Of a stretch of 64,000 bases of DNA, positions 1 through 61,781 are shown one piece after another. Source of the stretch: Eledone cirrhosa (taxonomy: Eukaryota). Location: assembly GCA_964016885.1 (NCBI GenBank), contig OZ024741.1, positions 83,576,001-83,640,000 on the forward strand, written 5' to 3'. The notes under the pieces are model-generated. The model did not search any database. It was not told where the DNA came from and saw only the letters and a program-made list of their open reading frames with translations. The translations under genes and the position numbers were made by a program. Every line of letters begins with the position of its first letter. Positions within the stretch are counted from its first letter, which is position 1.

Positions 1-649
1 CACCATGTTGACACTGTGGAGGACTTTTGTCCTAAGCCGCCTGGACTACTGCTCCCAGCTGTGGTCACCCCATAGTGTCAAACTAACCACGGAGCTTGAG
101 GCAATCCAGCGAAGCTACACCAAGAGGATTGCCAAGATGAGGGAGACAAGCTACTGGGAGAGGCTAAAGGAACTGAACCTCTACTCCTTGGAGCGAAGAC
201 GGGAGAGATACGCAGTGATCTACATGTGGAAAATCCTGGAGGGACTAGCACCAAACTTTGGCATTGGGAGCTGGACCAACCGTCGAACAGGACGTCACTG
301 TGTGGTGACAAAGGTCCCGTCTTCCACATCTAGAATAAGGAGCAGGTATTGCAATAGCCTGGGATTCAAGGGCCCTCAACTCTTCAACAGGCTGCCGAGG
401 CATCTGAGAGACTTGCATGACGTGGAGGTGGATGTCTTTAAGAAACATCTCGACACCTTGTTATCCAGGATCCCGGATGGGCCCACAGCAAGACACGAGG
501 GAAACCTAAGGGCAGCAGCAACAAACTCCCTCCTACACCAGTGGCCAACCTATACAGGCTGGAGATAAAATGTGTAGCAACAAGGGCGGTGCCCCAGCAT
601 GGCCTCAGCCGGAAGGCTGAAACAGGTAAAAGAGTAAAAGAGTAAAAGA
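1..649 (+). mobile_element. 3' end of CR1/L2-group LINE (family A), cut by the window edge
   Basis: ORF 5..568 has post-RT motifs LDYCSQLWSPH and YWERLKELNLYSLERRRER and is nearly identical to 13018-13660. The 3' UTR has hairpin TCAGCC-GGAA-GGCTGA and a (GTAAAAGA)x3 tail running into (TA)n. Confidence 0.93.
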
Positions 650-5019: not shown

Positions 5020-8000
5020 TCAGGATTTGGGCACCATGGCCCATTCGAGAAGAGAATTACTGTTTGCGGAGACATATCCGGGTGTGGGTGGTTTGTCCGG
5101 GATTACTTGGTGGAATTTGTCCAAAGACTTCTTGAATTTTGTGTGGTCAGTTTCTGTTTTGACGTGTCCTGGTGTGATGTTGAAGAGAGCAGGGCCGATT
5201 GAGGTGAAATAAGTGTGCCGTATTGTTGTTATGAGTTGCGATTTAGATTTTTGTATGGGACGGATAGCACGGGGCCCAAGCCTTGGGTGTATCTTGAAGG
5301 CGATGCCAACATCATTTTGGCAGTGATGATGGAACATTTTCCACATCATGCAGATAATATAACGCTCACGGCGACGTTGGAGTGAGTAAAGTTTCAGCTT
5401 TTCTAGTCGACCCCAGTAGTCAAGGTCTGACATGCCATCTATCTTTTTCGTGATTGCCCTTTGAGGAGCTTCAAGTTTCATGATACTTTGTTTCGTGTGG
5501 GGAGACCACAGTGGACAACAGTATTCAAGGTGTGGTCGGGCAAATGTAGAGAAGAGAAGGATAATGGTGTGGGAATCTCTCGACTGGAAGGTTCTGAGGA
5601 TCCAGGAACACATTCTGCGGGCCATGTCAACTTTGCTGCTTATATGCGTGGCCCAGCTTATGTTGCTGTCCACGGTTACTCCCAAGTCTCTGATGTTGTT
5701 AGATGCCACGAGAGTTTCCCCGGAGGGAAGGGAGTACGGGAGTTTCAGAGCATCCTCTTTTCCAAAGTGGATCAGTTCGAATTTGTCTTCGTTCAGTAAC
5801 ATGTTGTTCTTTTCCGCCCATTGGGTAACAGCCAGTAGGTCTGACTGAAGGCTTATCCGGTCATCCACGCCATTGATGACCTTTTGGAGCTTGGAATCAT
5901 CAGCGAAAATTTTAATGTTGCTGTGTTTGATGATGTCAGTGATGTCATTAATATAGATGATGAAGAGAAGTGGGCCCAACACAGTGCCTTGTGGGACCCC
6001 ACTGCTGACTTTGGCTGGGCAGGATTTGTCTCCTTCAACTACAACATGTTGGGTTCTGTTTGACAGGAAGTTCTTGATTCACTGCATCAGCTTTCCAGTG
6101 ACACCAATATTGGACAGCTTTCTCAGTAGTATGTTATGATCAACCCTGTCAAAGGCCTTGCTGAAATCAAGATAGATAACATCAGTGTTGGCACCCTCTC
6201 CCAAGGCTCTCAAAATGTCATCAAAGTGATGCAGTAGCTGCGTCAGGCAATCCCTTCCATTACGGAATCCATGCTGGTTGGAGCTCAGCATATTGTTACT
6301 CTCAAGGAAGTGGGTCATTCGCGATCTCACCACTCTCTCAAATACCTTAATGATATGAGAGGTGAGTGAGATTGGACGGTAATACACGGCAAGGGATTTG
6401 TTTCCTTTTTTGAAAACTGGGACAATAGACTGGGATAGAAGGTTTTCTGGCACATATCCAGCATCCAGTGAGTTCCGCCACAGATTGGCAAGAGGAGATG
6501 CAAGTTGGTGTTGACACGCCTTCAAGACACAATCAGGGAACCTATCGGGACCTACTGCTGAATTATGCTTGATTTCCTTTATTGCCGCTAAGACATCAGG
6601 GCGCCAAACGTTATGTCCGATAAGGTGTAATGGGGAGTAACATCGCGGATACAGCCCAGATCGGCCATATCAGGATTGCTGAAAACAGAGCAGTATTGTT
6701 TCTGCAGTATCTCACCCATGGTTTTAGCATTGTCCTGAAGAGTGCCATTTTCATCAATTAGAGGGCCAACAGTAGAGCCAGTGATTTTGTGTTTGTTTGC
6801 AAATGAAAAGAACACTTTGGGATTGAGTTTGATCTTTTCAATGGCACAGGCCTCTTCAGCTCTTCTCTGATTGTTGATGAGGGACATTATGTTGTTTTGG
6901 AGGTTATGTTTTTTAATCTCTAGTGATGAAATGGCAGTCAAGTTGATGTGTTGCTGCTGACAGTATTTCAGCTTGTTGATTTTTTTGTTTGTTCTCTTAA
7001 TTTTTCTGGTGAGCGTTTTTCTATTTCTAGGGATTCTGCTCTTAGATTTGTTTATAGTTTTTAATGGGATGTGTTTTGCACATATGTTTGTAACAGTGTC
7101 CACAAATGTCTGCCAGGACTTTTTGATGTTAGTGGGTGTATGAGTGTGCGTGAAGGACCAGTCGACATTTGCAAGATCATGACTGATCGCTTCCCAGTTT
7201 GCATGGTGGAAATCCATAGCGTCAAACGGATGGACAGGAGAGATGACATTGGGTTTGTATATTGGACGGTGGAATCTCAGATCACAGAGAACCATGTCAT
7301 GATCAGAGAGTAGAGTTGTCTCCACTGCAATATTGTGGATATTGTCAGTGTGATTGCTGAAAATTAAGTCTAGGAGGTTTTTGTGGCACCTCGTTGGTTC
7401 GAGCACCAGTTGGGATAGGAAGAAATCATCCATGAAGTCAAGAAGCGATTACACTGCTTCCCTGTCAGAGGTTGAGGCAGAAGAACCTGGTGGCAGGCTG
7501 TTTGTGGACCAGTCAACTCCGGAGAGGTCGAAGTCCCCCATCATTAAGATGTTGTCAGGGTGACACTCTTGGATGAAACACTTTATGCTGTTGAGGCATT
7601 CCTTGAAGCATGGTACAGGCGTTTGGGGTGGCCTATAGAGCCCAACTACTATTAGGTTGTTGGTTTGACTGAATACAGTGACTGCTTCGCAGTATCCATT
7701 AGTGAATATGTTCATAGCCTCTGTTGAGAAAGAATTATGGACATAAATGGCAGTCCCGCCCTTTCTTCTGCCAGCGCGATCAGCACGGATGGCTTTGAAA
7801 TTTTTCACTTTCACCTCGGCTTCCAAGTGGAGGTTACTGAGATGGGTTTCAGTGAGGACGAAGAAAGAGATGTGGTTTGGATGGACATCAATGCAGTCCT
7901 CCAGGAATTTGATCTTCCATTTTTGAGTATTGGTGGAAGGGCTGATGCCTTGGGCGTTAAGCAAAAATGTAGAGGCGAGAATGGATGGTTTTAATTGTTT

Positions 8001-8039
8001 TGGTGTGTTGTTAATTTGTTTGTTTGTTAATGGCAGCAA
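5020..8039 (-). pseudogene. LINE B ORF2: APE endonuclease + reverse transcriptase, disrupted
   Basis: APE motifs LLNAQG, LTETHL, YRPP, GDF, LDLIFSN, SDH; RT motifs YRPISLTS, YLDFSKAFD, LGPLLF, FADD. Nonsense codons at 7449-7451 and 6079-6081, and a frameshift near 6600. Confidence 0.93.
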
Positions 8040-8797
8040 TGGGAGTTTGTGCAGTGGGGTGATAGTGGAGGGTGGTGCTGGGTGATAGCTCGAATGTTTT
8101 TTTCCAGTTCTTTTGCCAGATTCATTATGGCTAAAAAAGAGGAAGAAGTATCCTGTTTAGAAGACTGTTGGTGACTGTGGTAGTGGTTATTTTTATGTAG
8201 GTTATGGTTTTTGTTTTTGCTTTTATTTTTAATTTTATTTTCATTTGTCCGACGGGTCCCCGGGAGATGGGTAAAGGGACAATCCCGGTCTAAACACAAT
8301 CTGTCTCGCAGGGAAAAGGGGCAGATTTGTGGATTCCTTGTTTGAGTTATTGGTGGTCGTGTTGGTGTTAAATTAGAGTATGTATTATGGTGGTGGCTGT
8401 TTGTGGGGATAGATCGTTTTGTCCTAGGTAAATGGGTGAATTTGCAGCCACTATCCGTACATATTCTAAAGCGTAGAGAGTAGCGGCAAATGATGGGGTT
8501 TCGAGTGGGTGGGTATGTGGGTGTGTGTGTTGTGAGAGGTGTAGATGATGGTCTGAGTAGGATTTGACGACCTTTGTGGACTGTGGGAGGGAGAGTTCTT
8601 GTACTGTTATTAGAAGGTAAATTCCTTGAGATAGCAGTAGCCAAAGATGTTGTAGTAGTAGTAGTAGTAGTAGGCAGAGAAGAAGATGCTGGCAGTGGTG
8701 ATGATTGGACTGCTGGGCCAGAGAAAGGATGTGGCGTTTCCTGCTGTGAGACAGAGGCTACTGGGAGGTCAATAGTTTCATTTAGTAGATCGGCCAT
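8027..8797 (-). CDS. LINE B ORF1 (partial), two CCCH-type zinc fingers
   Basis: CRYSLRFRICTDSGCKFTH and CPFSLRDRLCLDRDCPFTH (C-x8-C-x4-C-x3-H); lies immediately upstream of and overlaps ORF2. Confidence 0.82.
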   Translation of the reverse strand: MADLLNETIDLPVASVSQQETPHPFSGPAVQSSPLPASSSLPTTTTTTTTSLATAISRNLPSNNSTRTLPPTVHKGRQILLRPSSTPLTTHTPTYPPTRNPIICRYSLRFRICTDSGCKFTHLPRTKRSIPTNSHHHNTYSNLTPTRPPITQTRNPQICPFSLRDRLCLDRDCPFTHLPGTRRTNENKIKNKSKNKNHNLHKNNHYHSHQQSSKQDTSSSFLAIMNLAKELEKNIRAITQHHPPLSPHCTNSHCCH

Positions 8798-8863
8798 TGT
8801 TGATGAATCAAGGAGTGGTTCACACTGTTGTTGTTATTGTCGTTGTTGTTGTTGCTGTTGTTG

Positions 8864-9486: not shown

Positions 9487-9680
9487 TGAACTTCCCCCCC
9501 ACTCTTCCCGCTATCTCTCTCGCTCCCCTCATCTGTCTCCCCCTTTTCTTTTCTTTTCTTCTGTTTCTCTTTCTTCTTTTTCTCGCTGGAGTTATATCTC
9601 TATCTCCCTCCCTCACTCTGTCCCTCTCTAACCTCTACCCTACACTTCCCACTGTCTTTCTTTCTCCCCTCCACAGCGAA

Positions 9681-10625
9681 ATGGACTGCATGCAGGAAAA
9701 ATGTGAAATCAGGAGTCAACGAAACTGGTCTAAGATGGAACTAGCGGTTTTGATCAAGGGGTGGACCATGGCTGATGGGTCTCCACCAAGCAAAAAGATG
9801 GCGGAGAACCTGAAGAGCCATGGGTTTCTGAGGACCCTGGCACAGATAGAGAGAAAGAGAAAAGAAATTGAGAAGGCGTATGTCCTCATAGCGCCTCATA
9901 TGGCGATGCTAAGCCGTGTCCTCAGGGAGGAGAAAACCGAAGGGAGGGATGAGAAGGAGAGGGAAAAGGAAGAGGAAAAAGAAAAAGAAAAGGAGGAGAG
10001 CACAAGCACGGACCTGAAAGAAAATGATATACCCTCCGTCACAGGCAGGGAGGGCAGGCCGGGCAACCAACAAGCTAAGGGCAAAGGTGAAAAGCGAAAT
10101 CACCTTCCGAAGGAGAACCAAGCGCAGAGGGACCAGTGGACAACTGTTCAAAGAAAGAACAGAAAGCACCGAGACACTGGGAGCAATAAACCCCAAGTAA
10201 TGTGCAAGTTTTTCAAGAACGGGACATGCTGGCATGGAGAGACAGCGATGGGATGCAGATTCGCCCACCCTAGGTCTCAAACGAACTATGCCCATCATAC
10301 TCGCACAACATGCCCCAGCCAAAGCCGAAATAAGCCGCTCCAGAAGTATGCTGATGTCGCGCGTGCTGCACCAAGAAGGAGAAGGCACGCACATGCCGAC
10401 GAGATACAGATGGCAGCAGCAGATCAGAAAAATTTTTTAGTGATGGCAGAGAAGATTGTGGGACAGCTGACCTCGCTGCATCGTCTCCAGAACCAGGGTC
10501 ATCCACACGAGCACTCGAGACCACCGCAGTTAAGGGACCCAGAGTGGCCGCCGCTGACACCAGACCAGGTGTCATACCGACAGCCATTACTGGCACCCCA
10601 AAAGTCACACCAGTGCTGCTGCTGA
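9681..10625 (+). CDS. LINE A ORF1: Myb/SANT-like (trihelix) domain, charged linker, CCCH finger
   Basis: RNWSKMELAVLIKGW...KMAENLKSHGFLRTLAQIERKRKEIEKAY resembles the trihelix Myb/SANT pattern; CKFFKNGTCWHGETAMGCRFAH is CCCH-like. The ATG at 9681 is preferred over 9246 because the upstream part is translated (CT)n. Confidence 0.8.
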   Translation: MDCMQEKCEIRSQRNWSKMELAVLIKGWTMADGSPPSKKMAENLKSHGFLRTLAQIERKRKEIEKAYVLIAPHMAMLSRVLREEKTEGRDEKEREKEEEKEKEKEESTSTDLKENDIPSVTGREGRPGNQQAKGKGEKRNHLPKENQAQRDQWTTVQRKNRKHRDTGSNKPQVMCKFFKNGTCWHGETAMGCRFAHPRSQTNYAHHTRTTCPSQSRNKPLQKYADVARAAPRRRRHAHADEIQMAAADQKNFLVMAEKIVGQLTSLHRLQNQGHPHEHSRPPQLRDPEWPPLTPDQVSYRQPLLAPQKSHQCCC

Positions 10626-13585
10626 ATGTCAGGGGCCTGGTGAAACTCAGCAACATGAGTAAAATTTCCTACCTGGGAGACTTAGCCATAAGCAATCAAG
10701 CACTATGCATGGCACTAACCGAAACGCACCTGACAAGCAGTATAGCAGATGCAGAAATACATATACCGAAATATACTGTATTTCGTTCGGACAGGAAGGA
10801 GAGAACTCATGGTGGGTTTGCTCTGTATATCCGTGAAGATGTCACACCAATTGTACTGTTGACACATTCAAACTCAGTCTGTGACACACTGATAATACAT
10901 ATGAAGCAACTACAGACGGTAATATGTGTCACCTATCGGCCGCCCGATGCCCCCAGTCATGAGGGTAAATTTGAGGATAGCCTAAGTAGGATAGAAGAGG
11001 TCCTTGACAAACTGGACCAGGGTCTCAAAATCCTACTGCTGGGAGACTTCAACCTACCAAAGGTCAAATGGCCTGAGGGCCACCTCCTCCCTGGAATGAC
11101 GTCAATAGAACAGAGACAGACGGAATCCCTGCTGGCCCTCACACACAGGCTGTTCATGGAGCAAGCAATACTCCTCCCAACAAGAGGCGAAAATGTCCTG
11201 GACCTCTGTTTTACGAACAACGAAGTGCTCATCCACAATGTAAAGGTGACACCAGCAATTCTCTCGGATCATAACTTAGTAGAGCTAATGATATGTGGTC
11301 CAAGAGAACCAACAGAGACAAAACCACCAAGAAGCTCCGGGACGCTATCCAACCTTAACTTATACAAGGCTAACTGGAAAAAGATTAAGAGTGAAATCCG
11401 GAAGCAAACATGGAGTGAAAACATCGCCACACAAGACACTAACACACAATTTCAACACTTCATGACAACGATACACACCTTATGCAAAAAGTGTGTCCCG
11501 GAGAAAGAGGCAAACAGACACAAAAATCTTATTCCCAGAGATAGGAAAATCCTTATGAGACGTAGAACTAAACTCTCAAACCAGTTGAATAGTCAACAAA
11601 ACCAAAACAAGAAGTAATCCTATTTGAAACGTGCACTACTTGACACCGAGATTGCACTCAAACTTTCACATGAGAATGAGAGGGCAAAGAAAGAGAACAG
11701 GGCCAGAGAAAACATTAAAACAAACCCTAAGGCCTTCTTTAAATTTGCAAAAGAAACTGCCTCAGTACACTGCAAGATTGGACCACTCTTCCACACGGAC
11801 GGTTCATTAACCGAAAATCCCCAAGAGATATGTGAAATACTGAACGAACAGTACAAAAGTGTCTTCACATGTCCACTGAGGCACATGCAAATAACGAAGC
11901 CAGAGGAGTTATTTGATGCCACAACACTGCATCAAGAAATGGCAACCATCAACCACATAGACATAACGGAGGAGGATGTGGTGTACGCCATTGATGAAAT
12001 TAGAACAGACTCGGCTGCTGGACCTGATGGATTCCCAGCAGTTCTCCTAAAAATATGTAAGCGGGCCTTAGCAACTCCACTGAAGATGCTCTTCAGAAGC
12101 TCCTTGGCTAGCGGTGTACTACCCAGGGAGCTGAAAGAAGGCACAATATGCCCTATCCATAAAGGAGGTAGTAGAGCGGAGGCCAAGAACTATAGGCCAG
12201 TCTCCCTGACGTCGCATATCAGTAAGGTCATGGAGCGAGTCGTCAGAAAGAAACTAATCACTTTCCTCGAAGAAAATGACCGCCTGACTAGCACGCAACA
12301 TGGCTTCCGCCCAGGAAGAAGCTGCCTTACAGAGCTGCTACATCACTACGACTGGGTACTGAGACAACTACTAGACAGCTCACATGTAGACGTGATATAT
12401 CTTGACTTTGCGAAGGCCTTTGACAAGGTTGACCACGGAATGATATGTCACAAACTACACGGTCTCGGCATAACTGGAAAAGTAGGTGAGTGGCTGCATG
12501 GCTTCCTAAGGGACAGAAGCCAGGCAGTCGCAGCAAATGGGGCCCTCTCGAGGGAAACACCGATAACAAGTGGGGTGCCCCAGGGGACAGTCCTGGGACC
12601 ACTACTGTTTTTGGTGGCTCTCTCGGACATGCCCTCTGTGGTGCATGCAACAACATCCCTCACTAGCTATGCTGATGACACTAAGGTAGCACAGGCAATC
12701 AAAAACCCGGCTGACGCTGCCCTCTTACAGCAGGATCTGGATGCCATATACAGATGGGCGGAAGACAACAACATGCAGTTTAATGCTGGCAAATTCCAAG
12801 CCCTACAATACAAACCTGCAAACACAAACACAAATATAGCGGAACACAGCTACACAGGACCAGGAGGGACCGATATCCCCGTGTCAAAATCGATACGAGA
12901 CCTGGGCATAGACATGAGCGATGATGCATCTTTTTCTTCACACATCATGAAGGTGGCGACAACATGCAGACGATTTGCTGGCTGGATCTTGAGGACTTTC
13001 CTTACAAGAGATCGAGACACTATGTTGACACTGTGGAGAACTTTTGTCCTAAGCCGCCTGGACTACTGCTCCCAGCTGTGGTCACCCCATAGTGTCAAAC
13101 TAACCACGGAGCTTGAGGCAATCCAGCGAAGCTACACCAAGAGGATTGCCAAGATGAGGGAGACAAACTACTGGGAGAGGCTAAAGGAACTGAACCTCTA
13201 CTCCTTGGAGCGAAGACGGGAGAGATACGCAGTGATCTACATGTGGAAAATCCTGGAGAGACTAGCACCAAACTTTGGCATTGGGAGCTGGACCAACCGT
13301 CGAACAGGACGTCACTGTGTGGTGCCAAAGGTCCCGTCTTCCACGTCTAGAATAAGGAGCAGGTATTGCAATAGCCTGGGATTCAAGGGCCCTCAACTCT
13401 TCAACAGGCTGCCGAGACATCTGCGAGACTTGCATGACGTGGAGGTGGATGTCTTTAAGAAACATCTCGACACCTTATTATCCAGGATCCCGGATGAGCC
13501 CACAGCAAGACACGAGGGAAACCTAAGGGCAGCAGCAACAAACTCCCTCCTACACCAGTGGCCAACCTATACAGGCTGGAGATAA
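10544..13585 (+). pseudogene. LINE A ORF2: APE endonuclease + reverse transcriptase with a single premature stop
   Basis: ORFs 10544..11617 and 11624..13585 are in the same frame, split by one TAA at 11615-11617. Motifs LLNVRGL, LTETHL, YRPP, GDFN, SDHN, YLDFAKAFD, GVPQGTVLGP, YADD. Confidence 0.95.
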
Positions 13586-13658
13586 AATGTGTAGCAACAA
13601 GGGCGGTGCCCCAGCATGGCCTCAGCCGGATGGCTGAAACAGGTAAAAGAGTAAAAGA

Positions 13659-51841: not shown

Positions 51842-52483
51842 TTAAGTTATTTTATAGTGAGAGAATTTAGCTTTTAGTTTGTGGTTGCAGTATAATGATC
51901 GTTCAATTCTATCGTTAAGTAGTTTGTTTTGGGATTTTAGTATGTAAAATAGCTCAAGGTTACATAACCTGCAGTACTTCAAACCACTCCGATATGCATT
52001 TGCGCTGGAAAGTATATCCCATTTTAAGGTGAACTGTTGGTTGTGTTCACGGAGTTGCCAGGTCTTGTTGGCGAGCGTGGTCACAAAACGGTGATTCTGA
52101 TGTTTGATTGAGAATCGATGACGGTACCAGCGAGATTTAAACGATGTGGTGGTAGATCCGATATAGTACCATTTCTGGTCGTCCGATTCAACCGTGCATT
52201 GGTAAACAATGTTGGACTTTAGGCATTCATTCTGCAATGGACATCTTTCAGGTAGATGGCAGTTACATGCTTTGTTGTGGGTAGCGGGTATACCATGGAT
52301 AGGTTGTGATAGCGGTACAGGTGGGTTGTGCAATACCCGTCTCCCATTTAGTGGTTGGGAGGCAGATATTGCGTTCTGCCCATCTGTTACTAAAATGTTT
52401 TGTTTTGTAGAGTTGTTTAATTGCCTTAAGTTAAGTTTTTTTATGTATGCTTCAAGGTTTGGTGCCGTGGAGTATGATAGTCC
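51842..52483 (-). pseudogene. PLE linker + GIY-YIG endonuclease (5'-truncated)
   Basis: LSYSTAPNL...CNCHLPERCPLQNEC..IVYQC..YIGSTTTSFKSR..CRLCNLE..LLNDRIE..CNH. Confidence 0.9.
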
Positions 52484-52720
52484 TCTGGGGCAATAAATAA
52501 TTCCGACCTCAACTATCTACGCATCTCTCCAAAAGTAACTAATAAAACCCCTACCGATAACATTTTGATTAAGATATCTACAAGCCACTCTCTCCTACTT
52601 CTCCAACCCCTGCATATCTTTCCTTCTCTCTCCATCTTCCCTACTTTTCTCTCTTCCTGTTCCACTCTATCTTCCCCAACAACCCCACTTAAGGGTTTTT
52701 ACATTGTATATTTACCATTC

Positions 52721-55186: not shown

Positions 55187-57020
55187 GTATAGGATTATCC
55201 AAGATGCAGTGGTGGTTAATTACTACACTGGATATGGTTGACGTACGGTAAGAGGTTACTCTACGAGTTATGGAAGAATTGTTCAAGAAACTTAGTTCCT
55301 GATCCTTCAGTATTCCGGAGTGTATATAAAGAATGAATAATAACAGGTAGACATCATAAAAAGGTAGTTTATTCCGTGTGCTTACAAGTGTTTCCACGGT
55401 GGTACTGCAGCCTAGTTCCGCTACGTGCAAATTCACAAGTATTTGCAGAACTCGAATATCCAATGCTGTGACCACTGTTTCCTCAGAGCAGAATGGTAAA
55501 TATACAATGTAAAAACCCTTAAGTGGGGTTGTTGGGGAAGATAGAGTGGAACAGGAAGAGAGAAAAGTAGGGAAAATGGAGAGAGAAGGAAAGATATGCA
55601 GGGGTTGGAGAAGTAGGAGAGAGTGGCTTGTAGATATCTTAATCAAAATGTTATGGTAGGGGTTTTATTAGTTACTTTTGGAGAGATGCGTAGATAGTTG
55701 AGGTCGGAATTATTTATTGCCCCAGAGGTCAAGTTCATAGATGTTGAGAGGGAGGTAGGTCAAAGGTGAGAGAGAGAGAGTGTAATGGATGTAGAGAGAG
55801 ATATATAGGTAGAGAGGGGACAGATAAAGTATATGTGGTGAGTGAACTTTTGGTTTTGTAGTAGTAATCTAGGAATTGTACTGAGTTACCATGTATAGTG
55901 ATAAGCAGTGTATTGTCTTGTAGTGAGGGGGAGAAGAGAAGGTTGTTAGCTAGAAAGTGGTGTTGTAGTTACGGGTTCGAATGTTAAGTTATTTTATAGT
56001 GAGAGAATTTAGCTTTTAGTTTGTGGTTGCAGTATAATGATCGTTCAATTCTATCGTTAAGTAGTTTGTTTTTGGATTTTAGTATGTAAAATAGCTCAAG
56101 GTTACATAACCTGCAGTACTTCAAACCACTCCGATATGCATTTGCGCTGGAAAGTATATCCCATTTTAAGGTGAACTGTTGGTTGTGTTCACGGAGTTGC
56201 CAGGTCTTGTTGGCGAGCGTGGTCACAAAACGGTGATTCTGATGTTTGATTGAGAATCGATGACGGTACCAGCGAGATTTAAACGATGTGGTGGTAGATC
56301 CGATATAGTACCATTTCTGGTCGTCCGATTCAACCGTGCATTGGTAAACAATGTTGGACTTTAGGCATTCATTCTGCAATGGACATCTTTCAGGTAGATG
56401 GCAGTTACATGCTTTGTTGTGGGTAGCGGGTATACCATGGATAGGTTGTGATAGCGGTACAGGTGGGTTGTGCAATACCCGTCTCCCATTTAGTGGTTGG
56501 GAGGCAGATATTGCGTTCTGCCCATCTGTTACTAAAATGTTTTGTTTTGTAGAGTTGTTTAATTGCCTTAAGTTAAGTTTTTTTATGTATGCTTCAAGGT
56601 TTGGTGCCGTGGAGTATGATAGTCCTCTAGGGCAATAAATAATTCCGACCTCAACTATCTACGCATCTCTCCAAAAGTAACTAATAAAACCCCTACCATA
56701 ACATTTTGATTAAGATATCTACAAGCCACTCTCTCCTACTTCTCCAACCCCTGCATATCTTTCCTTCTCTCTCCATCTTCCCTACTTTTCTCTCTTCCTG
56801 TTCCACTCTATCTTCCCCAACAACCCCACTTAAGGGTTTTTACATTGTATATTTACCATTCTGCTCTGAGGAAACAGTGGTCACAGCATTGGATATTCGA
56901 GTTCTGCAAATACTTGTGAATTTGCACGTAGCGGAACTAGGCTGCAGTACCACCGTGGAAACACTTGTAAGCACACGGAATAAACTACCTTTTTATGATG
57001 TCTACCTGTTATTATTCATT

Positions 57021-60940: not shown

Positions 60941-61610
60941 CTACTGTACATATATTTTGAGAAAGGTCCCGGCTCTAAGGTGTCTGCATGTCCCGAAGAA
61001 GTCGGTTCTGAGGTTTATCAGGCCGCTTCCACCTCTTAGTATCTCGAGGGTCTCGTTCAGGCATAGTTTGCATATGCAAGATCCCCCTTTATCGGGTGGT
61101 ACTTTCCTGATTATGTACCAGGCCAGAGAGTATGGGGTCCTGTCCAGCTTAAGCTTCCAGATCAGGTCGGAGAGAGCTGTGCTTTTCCTTTTGGCCTCCT
61201 TCTTGAATGAATGGCGATGGTTGTACCAGCGGTCCTTAAAGCTCGTTGATGTGGCTCCTATGTAGAGGTGTTCGGAGTTGGGGGTTTTAACCCTACAACC
61301 GTACACTATGTTCTTCTTGAGACATTCATTACCAAGGGGGCATGATTCGGGGTTTCTACAGTTGCAGAGGGTGGGCGGCCTCTGCGTGCTTAGATTAGGG
61401 TTCTCATTATGTGTTACATGTTGGTCTTCCCCCATGCTCGGTGGGGGGTCCTTGGGTCTGTTTGTGTTTCTTGGGTGGGCTCTGGGTCCCCCCTTCCCTC
61501 CTTTCACATGGTTCTGCTGAGTGTTTGTATTGCCATCTTCTGGTTGTGTGTGGTTTTTAAGCCTACTTCTGTTGATGCTAGCTATGTGTTGGGCCAAATT
61601 TCTCGTGGTG
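60941..61610 (-). pseudogene. PLE linker + GIY-YIG endonuclease (5'-truncated)
   Basis: STTRNLAQHI...CNCRNPESCPLGNEC..IVYGC..YIGATSTSFKDR..CKLCLNE..LINLR..CRH. The first residues of the listed ORF come from the inverted pLTR. Confidence 0.9.
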
Positions 61611-61781
61611 GAATTCATATGACTGCAGTTCCCCAGTGAATTAACAACCCAGCAAGGAACTGGGCATATCAAAGTATTGACAATATCATACACCTAAACA
61701 ACATATGTACTTGTCTATACCATACTAATTCAAACTGCCTGAAGAGGTCACAGCCAAAGATGGCTGTCACTGAAATATATA

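Follow-up and report, generated by a model that had tools for sequence, protein, structure and literature searches.

A candidate −1 frameshift site linking ORF1 to an AUG-less ORF2 in LINEs of Eledone cirrhosa and their relatives

A LINE with no usable AUG for ORF2

The stretch of Eledone cirrhosa DNA analyzed here (64,000 nucleotides, hereafter the window) contains a LINE, termed LINE A, that raises the question of how ribosomes reach an ORF2 without a usable AUG. In the accessible text of PMC3708506, translation of LINE ORF2 from a bicistronic RNA is called unclear and the worked example is reinitiation. LINE A has an ORF2 with APE endonuclease and reverse transcriptase (RT) and no LTR, which defines it as an APE-type non-LTR retrotransposon (Table 1); its RT motifs suggest that it is CR1-like. 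As an earlier note on this DNA had read it, the ORF1 codons AAT TTT TTA GTG (10431–10442) place the heptamer T TTT TTA in the X XXY YYZ register, ORF2 in the −1 frame is open through this heptamer from the codon after TGA at 10352, and its first AUG comes after the motif LLNVRGL, 10 codons past the motif Asn. Since the residue aligned to this Asn in the L1 endonuclease is residue 14, an ORF2 started at 10655 would lose the first strand together with the aligned Asn. The ORF1 stop falls within the first endonuclease motif, and upstream of the endonuclease we found neither an AUG adjoining the ORF1 stop nor a UAAUG stop-start of the SART1 type. The features of a frameshift signal that LINE A does have are an in-register heptamer and a −1 ORF open from the site without a usable AUG. 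Judging from the sequence comparisons described below, we consider it likely that ORF2 of the LINE A family is made by programmed −1 frameshifting at U UUU UUA (10433–10439).

Table 1. Positions of the LINE A and LINE B features in the window
Feature	Positions	Strand	Remarks
LINE A ORF1	9681..10625	+	314 aa; ATG 9681, stop 10623-10625
LINE A slippery heptamer T TTT TTA	10433..10439	+	X XXY YYZ register, next base G
LINE A dual-coding overlap after the site	10439..10625	+	61 codons; ORF1 tail and T/S/P-rich linker in the ORF2 frame
LINE A ORF2 frame (−1), AUG-less 5' part, APE endonuclease	10355..11617	+	PF14529 E 3e-12, PF03372 E 1.1e-8
LINE A rest of ORF2, reverse transcriptase	11618..13585	+	PF00078 E 1.8e-29
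LINE A first in-frame ORF2 AUG	10655..10657	+	downstream of the Asn aligned to L1 endonuclease residue 14
LINE A in-frame GTG	10544..10546	+	across ORF1 Glu-Trp codons (EWPPL); no counterpart in three relatives
LINE A 3' tail	13643..13658	+	8-nt unit twice, then (TA)n
LINE B slippery heptamer T TTT TTA	8132..8138	−	same register as LINE A
LINE B ORF1 open frame	8027..8833	−	CCCH-like fingers, FL plus helix
LINE B ORF2 frame (−1)	5020..8156	−	APE and RT; stops interrupt the window copy

LINE A belongs to a young family. In its own genome (3.0 Gb), 39 other copies of the junction were found at 99% identity and a 26-nt family tag had 320 exact matches; the copies are dispersed and 5'-truncated, lack LTRs and carry a short-repeat 3' tail. 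The copy in the window is broken by a premature ORF2 stop (11615–11617), the commonest ORF2 stop-to-stop length among 150 scored copies is 1076 aa, and one other copy has a 1076-aa ORF2 frame in which the first Met has index 100. Pfam returned a weak Myb/SANT-like match and one CCCH finger match for ORF1, both below cut-off. The residues FL encoded at the heptamer are followed by a helix-like segment, and the C-terminal part of the protein comprises a helix and a Q/P-rich tail. Searches for relatives of this ORF1 gave a single one, an Octopus vulgaris protein (53%), and the ORF1 of a further family, C, is 91–94% identical to O. vulgaris proteins.

Several other features were seen around the element. 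The end of its 5' leader (9650–9676, +), a long pyrimidine tract and a CAG that is 4 nt away from the ATG of ORF1, resembles a 3' splice site far better than the LINE A heptamer does; a contig from run X1 begins at 9677, after TA repeats. A second family A copy contributes its 3' end at 2–568 (+), and (TA)n often flanks copies of families A, B and C, for instance from 13660 onward, which suggests that their insertion prefers TA microsatellites. ORFs resembling Penelope-type RT/GIY-YIG elements occupy 39103–40497 (+), 51842–52516 (−), 55984–56658 (−) and 60941–61693 (−).

In-register heptamers in other families and other hosts

Families C, D and E were recovered from the same genome through endonuclease searches, independently of the heptamer (30 loci examined of 150 profile matches, plus follow-up searches). 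An in-register shift site was present in all six CR1-like families with a recovered junction (A, B, B2, C, D and E), and it reads T TTT TTA G in A, B, B2 and C. The octamer occurs three times in the window (shuffle mean 0.50, three reached in 1 of 100 shuffles); this is only modestly above chance, and the strong evidence is cross-family. In the very divergent LINE B this heptamer recurs at the equivalent place, as the earlier note had stated (8138–8132, −), with an ORF2 frame open from 8156 and the first Met 81 codons past the motif Asn. In family C, T TTT TTA comes two codons after the opening of the ORF2 frame. Family D has G GGA AAC immediately before the ORF1 stop (5 of 5 copies match). 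In family E, G GAT TTT follows the opening of the ORF2 frame by one codon, and a 10-bp stem is predicted 5 nt on (G GAT TTT in 7 of 12 copies viewed, G GGT TTT in one, pattern unmatched in four). G_GGA_AAC counts as one of the shiftiest sites and G_GAU_UUU has been described in viruses, according to the accessible text of PMC5009743. An AUG ahead of the first endonuclease motif was found in none of the six families; in B, C and D the first Met lies even beyond the TE[TS]H/W motif, so that, by alignment to the L1 endonuclease, an AUG start would cost residues of the active site. For two other groups of endonuclease loci (L036/L037/L040 and L038/L043), none of the copies viewed had its junction intact. 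When the genome was searched with related proteins, family A came up again (20 loci); a CCCH query gave family C and two weak, uninformative matches, and viral contigs yielded no relatives.

Scans of metagenome and MAG contigs provided 160 loci of host-derived LINEs (the best 80 of 442 and the best 80 of 265), which made 165 with five own copies; 104 of the 165 had an endonuclease match and 70 a readable junction. ORF1 was called in the −1 arrangement at 34 of the 70 junctions, from which five were dropped, leaving 29: L185 and L186 (both of the L184 family, in which the site is present in L185 and absent from L186), L207 (whose motif was misplaced), L113 (whose main ORF1 shares the frame) and L145 (whose ORFs do not overlap). 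The remaining 36 junctions were of the +1 or same-frame type or had no called ORF1, so −1 frameshifting does not extend to the whole group.

Canonical heptamers within the overlaps of the 29 elements were strongly concentrated in one register (22, 1 and 5 elements for registers 0, 1 and 2), and were absent from seven, two of which had relaxed forms and five no recognisable site. For comparison with chance, the ORF1 proteins were resampled with synonymous codons, with no requirement that the −1 frame be open, and L199 was set aside as near to L118. An in-register heptamer occurred in 21 of these 28 elements versus 7.4 ± 2.0 expected (maximum 14 in 400 resamplings), and in 2 of 27 upstream windows of equal size. 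U UUU UUA, G GGA AAC or U UUA AAC was found in 12 of 28 elements versus 0.62 expected. Many of the A-rich heptamers have a high null probability (0.35–0.88).

The same set yielded some further observations. L117, L146, L183 and L209 have a −1 overlap with G GGG GAA where relatives carry G GGA AAC or G GAA AAC, and G GGG GAA is possibly a non-canonical shift site in them. In L108 and L184 the site is U UUA AAC, followed by a stop. In L106, L127, L134, L135, L140, L182, L194, L213 and L215, ORF1 and an AUG-less ORF2 share a frame with one stop between them; these nine are candidates for readthrough, or else for broken copies. Four ORF1 relatives (P0173, P0175, P0176 and P0178) have a 2A-like NPGP motif near the N-terminus; some elements may thus combine two recoding events, 2A-like and frameshift. 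2A in LINEs is already reported in the accessible text of PMC3708506. Animal-type LINE contigs were also found in many bacterial and archaeal MAGs (L178–L257), where they are probably host contamination.

Codon choice at the site and rival explanations

Families A, B and C form an ORF2 clade with L098, L100 and L179 (SH-aLRT 100) in a quick, midpoint-rooted tree of 63 rows, built from fetched loci only and leaving out L099, B2 and L264; branch lengths of 0.6–1.1 changes per column separate its members. T TTT TTA is present in five of the six clade rows, all but L179, and also in L099, B2 and L180, while L204 has T TTT TTG. The ORF1 of the clade contains CCCH fingers, often a PHD (10 of 19 aligned ORF1 relatives), and then FL and a helix. 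FL is retained even in ORF1 relatives with unalignable flanks, and some protein constraint on it is real because it begins an amphipathic helix. However, the choice of its codons is far narrower than the codon usage of each element: the chance of T at the third position of the preceding codon, TTT and TTA, given the amino acids, is 0.005–0.026 per element. The ORF2 frame opens 1–6 codons ahead of the site in seven of eight elements (26 in A) and stays open for 34–132 codons past it. The products of these chances, 1.6e-13 for the codons over eight elements (TTG allowed) and about 2e-9 for the frame, overstate significance because the lineages were assumed independent. The earlier note had proposed synonymous conservation as a check, and between families the FL codons show no free synonymous variation; on this comparative evidence the putative shift site is conserved beyond protein-coding need.

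L179, inside the clade, lacks FL, and an in-frame AUG precedes its ORF1 stop by 97 nt; its only heptamer is A AAA AAC, likely a chance occurrence (null 0.67). Among dead copies of family A there was no conservation of the site beyond that of the flanks: in 30 copies chosen irrespective of the site, the heptamer was kept in 20 versus 25.7 expected from flank divergence, which may reflect neutral decay at the boundary of the A/T run. Three of these copies share TTG and two share C at position 1, which could be once-active variants or reflect a mutable A/T run. A triple-CCCH ORF1 with FL and the heptamer was also seen in L180 and L204 on an ORF2 of another branch. This arrangement suggests that ORF1 and the candidate site have been exchanged together between ORF2 branches.

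A separate start of ORF2, by termination-reinitiation or at a non-AUG codon such as GTG 10544, with FL a mere conserved ORF1 motif, is the strongest of the rivals and is still unlikely. AUG-independent starts of L1 ORF2 are a precedent, and in-frame near-cognate codons exist in A, B, L098, L100 and L180, as does an AUG in L179; FL does begin a helix. Stop-start reinitiation in SART1 is a second precedent, in the accessible texts of PMC3708506 and PMC10275272. However, C, L099 and L204 have no ATG, GTG, CTG, TTG or ACG in the ORF2 frame ahead of the motif, and the LINE A ORF1 stop lies inside the first endonuclease motif. A separate start also leaves unexplained the fixed FL codons and a −1 frame that is open back to the heptamer and closes just before it. 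GTG 10544 itself was rejected as a conserved start, having no counterpart in three relatives.

Splicing, in which TTTTTTAG would be a 3' splice site and a donor in ORF1 would join ORF1 to ORF2, would likewise fix the codons and open the frame from the site onward, and an AG does follow the T run in A, B, B2, C, L098, L099 and L180, with pyrimidine-rich upstream sequence in B and L098. We nevertheless judge it very improbable. The upstream sequence of A, C and L180 is purine-rich with another AG 2–7 nt before the T run, L100 reads TTA CAG in the other phase, L204 has no AG, and the sites of D, E, L103, L108 and L184 are not acceptors. Cis-preference would favour copying of a spliced RNA, but in none of 30 genomic family A copies is other element sequence joined at the AG, the result of a check that the earlier note had put forward; 29 of them continue into ORF1 and one enters (TA)n about 12 nt upstream. 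Among 15 listed joints in four contig sets from one study none ends at 10441, which is not counted as evidence because contigs drop rare forms.

Slippage of a polymerase or RT on T6, adding one U and fusing the ORFs in some transcripts, is the least probable of the three: L264 (MAG contig G004:C340, minus strand) does have T7, with fingers and ORF2 in one 916-aa frame that equals the product of a −1 shift, but this T7 may be an assembly error, the T6 run is short, no frame-changing T7 appeared in the 30 unbiased A copies or in the censuses of B, B2 and C (in another set, one A copy combines a T-to-G change with an extra base), and G GGA AAC and G GAU UUU are left uncovered.

A predicted ORF1–ORF2 fusion and its relation to known systems

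For −1 frameshifting, which we prefer, the codon fixation, the in-register enrichment, the lack of spliced copies and the unconserved GTG 10544 all favour the ORF1–ORF2 fusion that the earlier note had put forward. Most ribosomes would complete ORF1 (314 aa), and a minority would slip by −1 after ORF1 residue 253, cross the T/S/P-rich linker and go on through the endonuclease and RT. The predicted fusion is about 1,300 aa in intact copies and would retain the CCCH finger region without the C-terminal helix of ORF1. It would remain uncleaved, since no protease domain was found in LINE A by Pfam.

The proposal of a downstream stem, GATGGCAG (10442–10449) pairing with CTGCATC (10476–10482) on the + strand, fared less well and was not supported by folding; it would begin merely 2 nt past the heptamer. 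The region 3' of the LINE A heptamer is predicted to fold less stably than its shuffled versions (z +1.41 and +1.50), as is that of a young family A copy (z +1.16 and +0.28). By the same comparison no stable fold was found 3' of the site in A, B and C, and no 3' stimulatory structure common to the focal clade (z −1.5 to +2.0). Hairpins were predicted in E, L099, L108, L118 and L199; within focal-clade elements only L099 has one, at a 7-nt spacer. UUA is rare in family A (4% of Leu codons), and our guess is that, in place of a common structure, this rare codon would aid a low shift rate. Apart from the clade, L118, L199 and L108 have the heptamer, an ORF1 stop within 0–1 codon and a strong 8–9-bp hairpin about 10–12 nt on (z −1.6 to −3.9), and are the most textbook frameshift cassettes of the set.

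The U UUU UUA heptamer is also the site of Semliki Forest virus 6K/TF. There, −1 frameshifting proceeds without functional 3' secondary structure (PMC5009743, accessible text), although in an RNA virus and for a short trans-frame protein rather than an enzyme fusion. The same text describes for HIV-1 gag-pol the same U_UUU_UUA, register and next G, with a zinc-finger ORF before the RT ORF, and also covers the HeT-A gag frameshift. Unlike HIV-1, LINE A is non-LTR, has no protease found by Pfam, and family A has no stable 3' hairpin.

Among LINEs, TRE5-A and TRE3-A of Dictyostelium are L1-like. The earlier note had set frameshifting against studied LINEs that reinitiate, a contrast that does not hold, since these two APE-type non-LTR elements are a −1 precedent, their ORF2 needing a −1 frameshift according to a figure legend in the review PMC5911963. 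They differ in being amoebozoan and tRNA-gene-targeting, and the accessible text of that review gives neither a site nor a test. SART1 and mammalian L1, whose RNAs are likewise bicistronic and of APE-type LINEs, face the same problem in reaching ORF2; SART1 uses a UAAUG stop-start (PMC3708506, accessible text), whereas LINE A has a 61-codon −1 overlap and no usable AUG. For Paramecium LINEs, a +1 shift, reinitiation or readthrough has been suggested (PMC5405496, accessible text). CR1-lineage LINEs with a PHD-type ORF1 (Metcalfe and Casane 2014) have APE, RT and PHD in common with the present elements; the accessible text of PMC4120745 describes no CCCH-type ORF1 and has no match for 'frameshift'. 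The prior-work set also contained PMC7175516 and PMC5006619, the latter with nothing on a slippery site in its accessible text. A search of the main texts in a largely open-access collection found no slippery site described at a CR1-type ORF1/ORF2 junction.

A broader reading, to which we give an even chance, is that in many animals the CR1-group LINEs reach ORF2 mainly through −1 shifts, as one of their chief routes, at sites that can replace one another, and that in the CCCH lineage the shift operates with no RNA stimulator, the site travels with a swapped ORF1, and an uncleaved Gag-Pol-like protein keeps the RT attached to RNA-binding fingers of its own. Because the site is a defined 7 nt, ORF2 translation can be tested with a simple reporter. 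If frameshifting is confirmed, the ORF2 protein of these LINEs would be fused to ORF1, annotated ORF2s that begin at the first AUG would lack active-site residues, and LINEs and retroviruses would have a common means to set the ratio of structural protein to enzyme.
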